Shown in pieces: positions 4,741 to 24,363 of a stretch of 64,000 nucleotides of DNA. How positions within the stretch are numbered: the stretch's first letter is position 1; each line of letters opens with the position of its first letter. Position numbers and translations under genes: made by a program. The notes beneath the pieces are model-generated. The model made no database searches, was not told the DNA's origin, and saw nothing but the letters and a program-made list of their open reading frames with translations. Origin of the DNA: a phage; assembly GCA_024614665.1 (NCBI GenBank), contig GCA_024614665.1_4861.1. One strand, written 5' to 3'.

Positions 4741-5271
4741 TTAGAGATAGTGTTCCACTATCACTTCTAACTCGCGGAAGATATGTGCGGTTTGATTAAA
4801 CAGCGTATCCTGTTCGGGTGTTTGTTTATCAAATGCACGCTGATACTGTTCTAACATAGCGAAGACCGTGCGCAGTTTTTCGCGCGCGACTTCAGGATCG
4901 GATGCACCGAAATAGTGATCAAGCCATCGTGGTTCTGAACTCTCTCCTTTTCTATCGATTGCCTCAGGCAACTCTAACCAACGTTGATTGGGAATGTTGC
5001 TACTGGATACACGGTTATACTCAGAAATGAAGAATTCCAATCGCTCCACCAACGTGTCAAAATCTCGAATACGTAATTCGAGTTGTCCACGCAATGAAAA
5101 AGGAAGGTATTCTTTCCCATTATATTCCAGAGGCTCTGTAATGAGTTCTAAGCCCACCATCACTCTGTGCAGGGTGTTATGGGTATTCTTATGAAACTCA
5201 GCCTCCAAAGAGCGTCTGCGAGCTTCTACAGCCTTACGACGCAGGAGTGTTGAAAGCCATTTAAAAAGCAT
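4741..5271 (-). CDS. hypothetical protein (176 aa)
   Basis: Intact ORF preceded by divergent intergenic region with AGATAATATCT motif. Confidence 0.45.
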   Translation of the reverse strand: MLFKWLSTLLRRKAVEARRRSLEAEFHKNTHNTLHRVMVGLELITEPLEYNGKEYLPFSLRGQLELRIRDFDTLVERLEFFISEYNRVSSSNIPNQRWLELPEAIDRKGESSEPRWLDHYFGASDPEVAREKLRTVFAMLEQYQRAFDKQTPEQDTLFNQTAHIFRELEVIVEHYL

Positions 5272-8983: not shown

Positions 8984-9283
8984 TTAGCGTTTTTTCAGTG
9001 GGAGTAACAGACGACGTTTATGCCAAACTTCGAAATGCATTTCTGCCCACTCGGTGACTTGATTGTCATCCTTAGGATTGATGTTAGAAATGCTTTTGAA
9101 GCGGTTACGGTTACGTTCGTCGATTTCGATTTCTAGAACGCGCTTACCATCAGCACGAGTGGTCACGTTCAGGATTTTACCAACCACGATAGGACTACCA
9201 TCGGCATTCTTCTTCGTCGGGGTGGTGTAAATCTCAGGTTCGATACGAGAGGTTAAAGCACGAGTCAGTAATTTGATTCTCAT
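8984..9283 (-). CDS. hypothetical protein (99 aa)
   Basis: Small ORF directly upstream of the RecA-like gene on same strand. Confidence 0.4.
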   Translation of the reverse strand: MRIKLLTRALTSRIEPEIYTTPTKKNADGSPIVVGKILNVTTRADGKRVLEIEIDERNRNRFKSISNINPKDDNQVTEWAEMHFEVWHKRRLLLPLKKR

Positions 9284-9381
9284 CAGGTGTTACCTTTTTG
9301 CAGTTCTCGTACATAAGGTTTGGGTGATACGTAAAAGACTTACTATGTAGCCCAATCCCTTATATATTCGAGGTTGATAGA

Positions 9382-10137
9382 ATGAATGTTAATCCACTTG
9401 CAGCGTTGTCGGGCTTTGTTGCCAAAGCATCCACGATTCTGCCTAAAGCCTTTAGCGGCTCTCAACAGGAACTCGCGCTGACCACCTATGACGACATGTC
9501 TGATGTGTCCAAGTGGATGCAGCAAGAGAAGTTTTTAAACTTTACCGGAATGCTTGTACCCGTACCTCCGGGCTTCAACACGTATGTGATGGACCACATA
9601 GAACGGTTGGAATCTGTATGGGCTGTGCTCCAGAAGATTCAGGAAGGGGTTTTAACACCCATCGATAAACGTTTCGGTGCGATGACCCATGACCTGGGCA
9701 TGTTAACTCTGCCGATTGGGTTTAAGTTCAAAGACCTGAACTACCCGCTGAAAAATATCAATCCAAAAGATCTGGTTGAGAAACTGGCGAAGTCGTATAC
9801 CAACAACGTCATTGACCAGCGTCCGATTGAAAAGACCTACCACAGCGCAGGCGAGATCGATGTTGCATTTAATCGTGCCAAAGCGCTGAACCTGGAAGTG
9901 ACTAAGAAACTTCAGAAAAGTATTGACCGTACAGTTGAAAGCATCAATGTCTCTGTGGATATTATCTCTAATTCACAAGTCCATCCTAATGTGGCGGCAG
10001 AGTTAGTGAAAATGGCTGACATGGGTGCTGACTGGGTTGAGCTGTTCGGACTTTTTATGAAACAGATTAACGAACTGACAGAATGTCTGAACGTAACTGG
10101 TGATCGCCTCAAGACCCTGAAAGCAAACAAAAAATAA
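9382..10137 (+). CDS. hypothetical protein (251 aa)
   Basis: ATG start; followed by strong hairpin terminator at 10147-10188. Confidence 0.5.
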   Translation: MNVNPLAALSGFVAKASTILPKAFSGSQQELALTTYDDMSDVSKWMQQEKFLNFTGMLVPVPPGFNTYVMDHIERLESVWAVLQKIQEGVLTPIDKRFGAMTHDLGMLTLPIGFKFKDLNYPLKNINPKDLVEKLAKSYTNNVIDQRPIEKTYHSAGEIDVAFNRAKALNLEVTKKLQKSIDRTVESINVSVDIISNSQVHPNVAAELVKMADMGADWVELFGLFMKQINELTECLNVTGDRLKTLKANKK

Positions 10138-21211: not shown

Positions 21212-21478
21212 CTAGTTACGGTCGGAATTAAAGACGTGCCAGGTACTACGCCAGCGAAAGAATCGGGTCATGAAACCACGCACGTGGTAGCCTGAGAACA
21301 ACATCCAGATCGTGAGAAAAAGCTGCGCCCATGGAGTGGTGAGTTCCATCAAATGTGCGACTATCGCACCAACTATCAACATTACCGTGGAGAATAACAA
21401 ACCATACATCATCGGAATGTTGTGGCTATAGTGTTTCTCCATCCAGTAGAGAAAATTTATTAAACGTTTCACGAACAC
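21212..21478 (-). CDS. small membrane protein (88 aa)
   Basis: Two hydrophobic helices (LLFSTVMLIVGAIVAHL, LFLTIWMLFSGY). Confidence 0.4.
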   Translation of the reverse strand: MFVKRLINFLYWMEKHYSHNIPMMYGLLFSTVMLIVGAIVAHLMELTTPWAQLFLTIWMLFSGYHVRGFMTRFFRWRSTWHVFNSDRN

Positions 21479-22929: not shown

Positions 22930-22944
22930 GATAATAATATCTAT
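22930..22944 (-). promoter_or_regulatory. AGATATTATTATC motif upstream of gene 22120..22881
   Basis: Related motif about 50 nt upstream of start. Confidence 0.25.
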
Positions 22945-23441
22945 TTGAAACTTTTTGGGATGATTTTCTCTGCTTCCCTCAGCAGGGTGTCTGGTAAATA
23001 GAATCGATAAGTCTGCTCCGTGTGCTGTAGTCGTTTCTGTAAGTGTATAAAGATTTCCAATCGCTCATGGTAACGTAACCAACCGTTAGCCATCCCTAGG
23101 GGCGGTATCGCAATCCCTCCTTCTAAGTCTTCCCCTAGTCGCGCCAGCGCATCAATGCCGGACGTGACATAGTAAATCTGCGATTTATAGCGAAAATGGG
23201 TTTTAGTAGGAAGGAGTATTACCCCTTCCTCAGGATAACAATAGACCTCACCGATAACGATTTGCTCTTTACGACATTTCTGGCGATAGTCGTTATAAAG
23301 CGATGGGAAGCGTTCTCGGCACGCCAAGGCAATGCCCCTTCCCATCGCACCAACACAGTTAACTGTAACGACCTTGAAGCGCTCAGGCGCGTTAAACAGG
23401 TCGTGGGAGATAATAGCCTCGTCGATCAGTTCGAGTGACAT
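22941..23441 (-). CDS. macrodomain protein, TARG1/DarG-like (166 aa)
   Basis: KVVTVNCVGAMGRGIALACRERFP and IAIPPLGMANGWL match the NCxGxMGxGIA / GxxNG pattern I recall for TARG1/DarG-type macrodomains. Confidence 0.5.
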   Translation of the reverse strand: MSLELIDEAIISHDLFNAPERFKVVTVNCVGAMGRGIALACRERFPSLYNDYRQKCRKEQIVIGEVYCYPEEGVILLPTKTHFRYKSQIYYVTSGIDALARLGEDLEGGIAIPPLGMANGWLRYHERLEIFIHLQKRLQHTEQTYRFYLPDTLLREAEKIIPKSFK

Positions 23442-23640
23442 CTATTGCCATACCCCATTGTGAAATAACCGGAGACTGAAGCAGCGATTCCAGCTCAGTA
23501 AGAACTCTGGCTTTTGCTTCTTCGCGCAACTTACGGACTTCCGGATCAGGTTTGCCTGCGCCCAAATATTGGGGTTCTGTCTGCGGGGTAGGGAAACCAC
23601 AGAAAGAACTAACCATTATTCCGATGATTGTTTTTTGCAT
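23392..23640 (-). CDS. hypothetical small protein with hydrophobic N-terminus (82 aa)
   Basis: ORF overlapping the macrodomain gene start by 50 nt; N-terminus MQKTIIGIMVSSFCGF. Confidence 0.3.
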   Translation of the reverse strand: MQKTIIGIMVSSFCGFPTPQTEPQYLGAGKPDPEVRKLREEAKARVLTELESLLQSPVISQWGMAIDVTRTDRRGYYLPRPV

Positions 23641-24063: not shown

Positions 24064-24074
24064 TTTAATGCTCC

Positions 24075-24338
24075 TTAGGGTAAAGTTGCCTCCCAGTCGT
24101 AACGGTGAGGCTCAGGCAGCGTACCAAGCGCTGCTTTAATACACGTACTCAGCGGAGTATCATCGAACGCAACACGCCCGATAGTACCCACGTTGATGTG
24201 TTTTGGATTTACGGGTAAGAACTCCTTCACCCGCTCGTACTCAGCCCAACAGATATCGGTGTTTAAAGCTGAAAACCCAGGACGGTGAAACATAAATAGC
24301 ACTCCTCGCGTAAAAATACCCCACTCATAGTGAGGCAT
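24075..24338 (-). CDS. hypothetical protein (87 aa)
   Basis: Intact ORF. Confidence 0.35.
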   Translation of the reverse strand: MPHYEWGIFTRGVLFMFHRPGFSALNTDICWAEYERVKEFLPVNPKHINVGTIGRVAFDDTPLSTCIKAALGTLPEPHRYDWEATLP

Positions 24339-24363
24339 AATCGTAAGGAGTGCTAAAACAGGA

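Follow-up and report, generated by a model that had tools for sequence, protein, structure and literature searches.

A putative AdfM orthologue in an SPN3US-type jumbo phage: a stand-alone macrodomain related to DarG

A short gene within a 64,000-nucleotide stretch of phage DNA (hereafter the window) raises the question of which process a single macrodomain could serve in a virulent jumbo phage. The reading favoured here is that the gene most probably specifies an orphan DarG2-type antitoxin of the AdfM group, which would erase DarT2 marks in the phage nucleus. The AdfM family and its function are already known, having been published in April 2026 (Morgan et al., Cell Rep 2026; PMC13309987), when phiKZ gp104 was named AdfM, short for anti-DarT factor macro, in a study stating that no macrodomain Adf had been reported earlier. 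What is new is the confident assignment of an orthologue from the enterobacterial SPN3US clade, and little more.

The gene is an ATG-initiated frame in the ORF listing, and its translation includes both of the motifs on which the original prediction had been built, KVVTVNCVGAMGRGIALACRERFPSLY and GGIAIPPLGMANGWLRYH. Its start codon is supported because the orthologue in Erwinia phage Asesino opens with the same nine residues, MSLELIDEA. The frame is equivalent to SPN3US gp196, which is SPN3US_0196 in the original record and the 'macro domain-containing protein' ACQ60_gp070 in RefSeq. Against the SPN3US copy the window protein shows 98.8% identity, and it matches the Escherichia phage vB_EcoM_Lh1B protein at every residue (100%). 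Papers on the virion and on the genetics of SPN3US make no mention of gp196. A recent transfer of the frame was considered and rejected, as its composition matches that of its surroundings (GC of 0.475 for the frame vs 0.479 for the window), which is consistent with a long-resident gene. A scan for sigma-70 promoters and terminators around the gene returned only background levels; such a scan is of little relevance to phages with their own RNA polymerases. A conserved ORF of 82 amino acids overlaps the start of the macrodomain gene. The strand of the gene, together with the phage nucleus and the likely nuclear site of action, had been left out of the original prediction.

Table 1. Positions in the window of the macrodomain gene and of its predicted functional elements
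Feature	Positions	Strand	Basis
Complete CDS, stand-alone DarG2-like macrodomain (putative AdfM orthologue), 166 aa	22941..23441	minus	ORF listing, DarG profiles, PDB matches, AF2, Foldseek, synteny
First ADP-ribose-binding loop, residues 26–38 (TVNCVGAMGRGIA)	23328..23366	minus	Mapping from Taq DarG
N28 codon	23358..23360	minus	Equivalent to Taq DarG N22 and phiKZ AdfM N23
K80 codon, PTK motif, predicted catalytic lysine	23202..23204	minus	Equivalent to Taq DarG K80, phiKZ AdfM K78 and TARG1 K84
Second ADP-ribose-binding loop, residues 113–122 (PPLGMANGWL)	23076..23105	minus	Equivalent to Taq DarG loop 117–122

The 5-kb stretch around the frame shares 96–99% nucleotide identity with some 23 complete genomes of SPN3US-type Seoulvirus jumbo phages, which are approximately 240 kb in size and have Salmonella, E. 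coli or Proteus as hosts. The window is part of the genome of an SPN3US-like, nucleus-forming jumbo phage, or chimallivirus. SPN3US has a diverged chimallin homologue, gp244 (PMC9365700), and a 2026 review places it with the phages for which construction of a nucleus-like compartment has been shown by experiment (PMC13282480). No tblastn match to phiKZ chimallin or to PicA was obtained within the 64-kb window, and a search of all phages with phiKZ chimallin as the query reached neither SPN3US nor Asesino at E≤1e-10, the chimallins being too divergent.

According to Pfam, the neighbours of the gene comprise an SLT transglycosylase, a GNAT acetyltransferase, an SMC/SbcC-like ATPase and small ORFs without family matches. 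No darT toxin gene adjoins the frame among the neighbours checked. Similarly, no ADP-ribosyltransferase (ART) was found by Pfam among these neighbours, and the PHROG annotation of a relative lists none within ±20 kb, which leaves the suggestion that the macrodomain might regulate phage ADP-ribosyltransferases with no support. The window holds 33 copies per kb of the DarT2 motif TNTC (z=+1.3 relative to dinucleotide shuffles). Avoidance of DarT2 target motifs by the phage DNA was tried as an explanation and rejected, with z-scores of −2.4 for TTTW and −1.8 for TCTC alongside that for TNTC; since TNTC is abundant and not depleted, protection of the phage DNA would have to come from something other than motif avoidance.

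The protein consists of one macrodomain, which belongs to the DarG/TARG1 subclass and lies far closer to DarG. In a phmmer search of the PDB the best match is 5M3I, the macrodomain of M. tuberculosis DarG (E=1.9e-20), followed by 5M31/5M3E from T. aquaticus (Taq) DarG (E=8e-19) and 7OMU from a Thermosipho DarTG (E=1.5e-10); the identity of 5M31/5M3E and 5M3I as DarG macrodomains is confirmed in PMC5179494. The PADLOC DarG profile matches with E=4e-32. The NCBIfam antitoxin_DarG profile (NF048014) matches with E=9.7e-31, aligning residues 14–152 with profile positions 7–150 of 338, at a score of 107 bits that lies under the curated cutoff of 250 and with profile positions 151–338 unmatched. phiKZ gp104 behaves likewise, matching both DarG profiles with its N-terminal macro half only.

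Macro-domain profiles and superposition on solved structures had been put forward in the original prediction as the means of checking the assignment. The first of these gave a divided answer, for the generic Pfam Macro model (PF01661) is borderline, scoring 21.7 bits where the gathering cutoff is 22 (E=2e-4, profile positions 2–105 of 118), whereas the DarG profiles are strong. The macrodomain call rests on the DarG-specific profiles, the PDB matches and the fold, for which the evidence is unambiguous, and not on the borderline Pfam score. The second came out well. An AlphaFold2 (AF2) model built with 56 homologues has a pLDDT of 93.6 and a pTM of 0.90 and forms one domain, and the top four matches of this model in a Foldseek search of the PDB are all DarG entries (E=1e-13 to 7e-10, 25–32% identity). 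The best of them, 5M3E, superposes with TM-scores of 0.77/0.83 and an rmsd of 2.2 Å (E=1.1e-13, 32% identity). After a gap come TTHA0132 (2.5e-7), TARG1 (2.7e-7, 16% identity) and alphavirus macrodomains; a fold search of BFVD gave nothing beyond generic phage macrodomains. The macrodomain type that had been predicted is thereby supported, with DarG much the nearer of the two named relatives, and so is the idea of a stand-alone single domain. The C-terminal DarT-binding domain is absent, as the protein stops at residue 166 when compared with a full-length DarG profile of about 340 amino acids. With neither a DarT-binding domain nor a neighbouring darT, the gene product has the character of an antitoxin-like orphan enzyme encoded by a virulent phage.

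The residues of Taq DarG that were defined in PMC5179494 were mapped onto the protein. Those kept are N22 (N28 in the phage protein), K80 (K80), T20 (T26), T79 (T79), G117 (G116), N120 (N119) and G121 (G120), and the position of K29 is occupied by R35, which was counted as retained. Among the 149 closest representatives N28 is found in every one and K80 in 148, and N28 is also invariant in both alignments of relatives. In Taq DarG, the K80A substitution inactivates the enzyme, N22A is the next most damaging mutation, and the loop 117–122 closes over ADP-ribose (PMC5179494); in phiKZ AdfM, N23A lowers activity (PMC13309987).

The pocket does contain some changes relative to Taq DarG. W83 is replaced by F83, a residue shared by just 5 of the 149 closest representatives, and Q34 is replaced by A40. 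G119 has become A118, a position at which G119E impairs Taq DarG (PMC5179494) and at which active phiKZ AdfM also has alanine. Finally, G122 has become W121; tryptophan is found here in 12 of the 149 and glycine in 100, and the change is typical of the SPN3US/Erwinia clade.

The link to AdfM is made through Asesino gp217 (YP_009290835.1), to which the protein is 69.3% identical over 100% of its length. Both phages have the same gene order, of SMC-like, GNAT, macro and transglycosylase genes, and comparison of sequence and synteny identifies the protein as the syntenic orthologue of gp217, a named AdfM. The AdfM set consists of phiKZ gp104, PhiPA3 gp108, Asesino gp217 and Goslar gp83 (PMC13309987); the legend to Figure 1 of that paper lists gp217 as AdfM, and localisation is the only property of it tested there. 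Connections to phiKZ itself are also evident. A direct BLASTP comparison with phiKZ gp104 gives 36% identity (E=2e-25), and in the reverse search gp104 has a single match in SPN3US, which is the macrodomain gene. By tblastn, homologues are found in 253 phage records, mostly from phiKZ-like jumbo phages, with gp104 as the match in phiKZ.

The properties of AdfM have been described in some depth. The phiKZ protein strips DarT2-made ADP-ribose from TNTC-containing ssDNA in vitro and rescues DarT2 toxicity (PMC13309987). Deletion of AdfM in phiKZ and PhiPA3 brings the titre down by 3–6 logs on DarTG2-expressing hosts, with ADP-ribosylation of the phage DNA raised and packaging defective (PMC13309987). 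Import into the phage nucleus was shown for phiKZ gp104, PhiPA3 gp108 and GFP-tagged Asesino gp217 (PMC13309987), and such import is set by a species-specific folded surface, and not by a motif, together with PicA (PMC11087766). By analogy with phiKZ gp104 and PhiPA3 gp108, and through the 69% identity to Asesino gp217, these observations lend support to the original view that the protein counters a DarT-type defence.

If the protein is an AdfM, as appears most probable, its action can be envisaged as a series of steps. The DarT2 toxin of a host DarTG2 system would attach ADP-ribose to thymidines at TNTC-like motifs where the phage DNA is single-stranded, and these marks would block replication of the phage and packaging of its genome. 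The two glycine-rich loops of the 166-residue macrodomain would then bind the ADP-ribose, with K80 cleaving the bond between thymidine and ribose and N28 helping to position the substrate, so that unmodified DNA results. Unlike bacterial DarG, the protein has no C-terminal domain for binding DarT, and it would hence act solely by erasing the modification. With a chimallin nucleus built by the phage, its own import pathway most likely carries the enzyme inside, where it would work on replicating phage DNA and back up the shell, which would be an imperfect barrier to DarT2. On the model of its tested relatives, the protein is thus expected to hydrolyse thymidine-linked ADP-ribose on ssDNA, to be a cargo of the SPN3US-type nucleus and to protect against the DarTG2 of enterobacterial hosts. 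E. coli has DarTG2 systems, and these defend against phages (PMC11825919).

The wider family bears on how the gene may have arisen. A phmmer search over 1.84 billion representatives yields 4,244 relatives at E≤1e-3 and just 3 at E≤1e-30, so that the SPN3US/Erwinia clade forms a compact island. The NCBIfam DarG equivalog is matched over its full length at E≤1e-60 by 75 of the 149 closest representatives; in architecture, 49 of the 149 are stand-alone, 60 have an N-terminal macrodomain followed by a long C-terminal extension, and in 22 the macrodomain is C-terminal. Core identity to the window protein is 74% for Asesino, 38% for Taq DarG, 37% for Mtb DarG and 36% for phiKZ AdfM. A neighbour-joining tree of 163 macro cores groups the protein with Asesino and other short proteins, and a clan that includes phiKZ gp104 and is free of long DarG-type proteins is recovered in only 50 of 200 bootstraps. 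From these comparisons, chimalliviruses may have taken the DarG macrodomain once or several times. That the SPN3US/Erwinia clade represents an independently captured DarG macrodomain, with its substrate range shifted or broadened, is doubtful. Under such a scheme the substrates might include what other DarT variants produce, further modified bases, or RNA or protein bearing ADP-ribose. The idea draws on the unusual pocket residues of the clade: W121 lies in the closing loop, A40 takes the place of glutamine, and F83 stands in place of a near-universal tryptophan for which stacking on the modified thymine has been proposed. The overlapping 82-residue ORF might be a functional partner.

It is unlikely that the enzyme is instead a de-ADP-ribosylase for proteins or RNA, which would reverse other ART-based defences or tune phage ARTs. 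The fold and the catalytic lysine are common to TARG1, a protein de-ADP-ribosylase (PMC5179494), the clade-specific residues F83, A40 and W121 could shift substrate preference, and ARTs, like macrodomains, are common among jumbo phages (PMC9503650). However, DarG outperforms TARG1 by about six orders of magnitude in Foldseek E-value, and genuine full-length DarG antitoxins make up half of the closest relatives. Moreover, the neighbourhood of the gene and the flanks of annotated relatives, as noted above, contain no ART; ARTs are reported to be commonest in jumbo phages that have no RNA polymerases of their own, a class to which the phiKZ-like group does not belong (PMC7824862), and the orthologue sits in a phage nucleus that contains DNA (PMC13309987).

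Less likely still is a small substrate derived from ADP-ribose, such as ADP-ribose-1''-phosphate, O-acetyl-ADP-ribose or immune signals of the cyclic ADP-ribose type. The proposal draws largely on names: the matching PHROG 335 (E=6.6e-30) is called 'phosphatase', many Erwinia phage records have a 'putative Appr-1-p processing protein', and 5M3I bears the label 'RNase III inhibitor'. In addition, the breakdown of soluble ADPr signals has been proposed for jumbo-phage macrodomains from comparative genomics (PMC7824862). Across the relatives, GenBank labels include 'hypothetical protein', 'phosphatase', 'Appr-1-p processing protein' and 'protein-ADP-ribosylation protein', and those on many records of SPN3US-clade relatives are uninformative or misleading. 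The 'phosphatase' and 'Appr-1-p processing' labels are inherited from macrodomains of the Appr-1''-p phosphatase type. Significant similarity to characterised Appr-1''-p phosphatases was not found by phmmer against the PDB, where the chains of yeast Poa1p match weakly (E=0.05–0.13), with 15–16 bits over 39 residues as against 71–76 bits for DarG. The active site is of the DarG/TARG1 lysine type, and the AdfM that has been tested acts on ADP-ribosylated DNA, with a deletion phenotype that is specific to DarTG2 (PMC13309987).

The least probable option is a non-catalytic reader of ADP-ribose, or a decaying gene without an anti-defence function in the SPN3US lineage, for although phiKZ gp104 is non-core, with knock-down or deletion mattering little on hosts without DarTG2, and several SPFM phage records have shortened versions of the gene, the full-length frame is kept at 98–100% in over 20 SPN3US-type phages that were isolated independently, and at 45–81% across Erwinia, Cronobacter and Salmonella jumbo phages, with all the catalytic and ligand-contacting residues intact. 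Alignments of the SPFM records in question break up into 40 pieces, a sign that the shortened copies stem from assembly errors. The three rivals set out in these last paragraphs together hold only a small share of the probability.

An AdfM-type role for the gene, the reading preferred here, would have consequences for how jumbo phages are viewed. The protein shell of these phages would be an incomplete shield, through which DarT2, being small and diffusible, still marks the phage DNA, and an eraser enzyme would be needed inside the nuclear compartment. SPN3US-type phages are candidates for the biocontrol of Salmonella and E. coli, and the gene predicts resistance to the DarTG2 of their hosts; its loss would be expected to narrow their host range.

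When compared with other known systems, the protein has its most distant counterpart in the Appr-1''-p phosphatases, represented by yeast Poa1p (6LFQ–6LFU). The macrodomain fold and a glycine-rich first loop are shared, but the match is marginal and the catalytic arrangement is a different one. TARG1 (C6orf130, the human terminal ADP-ribose protein glycohydrolase; 4J5Q, 4J5S) belongs to the same macrodomain subclass and has a lysine at the K84 position, with Foldseek TM-scores of 0.68–0.69/0.77–0.81. However, it is only 16–17% identical to the phage protein, its E-value is some 10^6 weaker than that of DarG, and its substrate is glutamate-linked protein ADP-ribosylation; the relationship is a distant one and not one of orthology.

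DarG provides the closest solved structures and profiles, and its catalytic lysine and asparagine, as well as the residues in contact with ADP-ribose, are the same in the phage protein. The isolated macrodomain of DarG suffices as an antitoxin (PMC5179494). The phage protein is half as long as DarG, lacks the C-terminal domain that binds DarT, and is encoded without an adjoining darT. Moreover, its gene resides in a virulent phage, where it would serve in counter-defence and not as an antitoxin guarding against a toxin of its own.

A parallel in strategy is found in AdfN of T4-like phages (PMC11825919), which is likewise the orphan eraser half of a DarTG system and cleans the phage's own DNA. 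In contrast to the macrodomain, AdfN has a NADAR fold that is unrelated to it and acts on guanosine-linked ADP-ribose made by DarT1; it counters DarTG1 and not DarTG2 (PMC11825919). The nearest counterpart of all is AdfM. In comparison with phiKZ AdfM, the protein lacks an insertion that is specific to phiKZ and precedes the second loop, its W121 and F83 correspond to a glycine and a tryptophan in phiKZ, and its C-terminal helix is longer. The likeness to AdfM lies in a gene of chimallin-type jumbo phages, a stand-alone macrodomain of about 160–166 amino acids with DarG2-like sequence and fold, and the conserved catalytic asparagine and lysine in a protein free of the DarT-binding domain.

Within the SPN3US clade, the ADP-ribose pocket of the stand-alone macrodomain, the orthologue of the phage counter-defence protein AdfM, carries clade-specific substitutions at three positions, W121, A118 and F83. 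At position 121 of the closing loop a near-universal glycine is replaced by tryptophan, which is found in 12 of the 149 relatives compared, and at position 83 a tryptophan is replaced by phenylalanine, a residue shared by only five of those 149. A stacking role against the modified thymine has been proposed for the tryptophan at the equivalent of position 83. With respect to the motifs targeted by the DarT2 toxin, no depletion of TNTC was detected across the whole window (2112 observed against 2062 expected, z=+1.3), and TTTW is slightly under-represented over the same stretch (z=-2.4), as judged against dinucleotide shuffles.

The macrodomain gene is overlapped by an 82-aa ORF, the end of which lies 50 nt within it and hence covers its start. 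The small protein has a hydrophobic N-terminus (MQKTIIGIMVSSFCGF...) and found no match in a Pfam search. An unannotated counterpart in the Erwinia phage Asesino, 43% identical over 81 aa at the protein level, also overlaps the start of the AdfM gene there, gp217. The 82-aa ORF is probably a real gene, and its translation may be coupled to that of the AdfM orthologue. Further along, an indel of ~0.5 kb divides the window phage from SPN3US, SEGD1 and EC001. SPN3US has an additional 172-aa ORF (RefSeq gp073) between the gp072 homologue and an 87-aa ORF; it gave no significant Pfam match, and is missing from the window, SaP7, the SPFM phages and the SPLA phages. An 88-aa ORF elsewhere in the window resembles DUF4231 weakly and below threshold in Pfam (E=0.004, 18 bits against a cutoff of 24.7).

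Features of the window and of related phage loci
Feature	Record	Coordinates or identifiers	Strand	Remark
Pocket substitutions W121, A118, F83	window	23076..23105 and 23193..23195	-	
82-aa ORF (SPN3US_0195 / RefSeq gp071)	window	23392..23640	-	overlaps start of macrodomain gene
Asesino counterpart of 82-aa ORF	L003 (Asesino locus)	4811-5047		
Indel	window; L001 (SPN3US locus)	~24064..24363; 9083-9852		
87-aa ORF	window	24075..24338		homologous position flanks the 172-aa ORF in SPN3US
88-aa ORF	window	21212..21478	-	predicted hydrophobic segments
Shortened macro copies	SPFM records	P0037, P0038, P0042, P0043, P0047, P0050, P0052		
DarG-like gene, full-length, 357 aa	L009 (phiMa locus), MH673674.1	27026-28099		Thermus phage phiMa, 52 kb

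The macro gene is truncated or frameshifted (111-152 aa) in Salmonella phages SPFM1, 6, 8, 12, 14, 15 and 20. The SPFM7 and SPFM14 megablast alignment is broken into 40 fragments with merely 49% of the query covered, and the shortened copies most likely reflect error-rich assemblies rather than true pseudogenes. The cluster of proteins 99% identical to that of the window (P0001) comprises 90 sequences, spread over 75 contigs. Some carry the label of Salmonella enterica isolates, on contigs reaching 243 kb, so that entire SPN3US-type phage genomes occur within bacterial isolate assemblies.

Some phages that do not form a nucleus likewise encode stand-alone DarG-like macrodomains, namely the phiEco32-like podophages (phiEco32 gp37, locus L006), vB_EcoM_DE15, T4-like phages of Morganella, Proteus and Providencia, and Vibrio phages (matches H64-H84 and H221-H230). 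As the phiEco32 group is closer to the phiKZ AdfM (41-45% identity) than is the SPN3US clade (35-36%), these sequences suggest that AdfM-type counter-defence may reach well past the chimalliviruses. In the Streptomyces phages Quantum, Frankenweenie and Kela (H63, H258-H260) a DarG-like macro match falls under genes annotated 'ADP-ribosyltransferase', which may be ART-macro fusions or mis-annotations. Finally, the non-jumbo Thermus phage phiMa encodes a macro core that is 86% identical to the DarG of T. aquaticus and its sister in 200 of 200 bootstraps; from this relationship, the gene seems to have been acquired recently from a host as an entire DarG, including the DarT-binding half.
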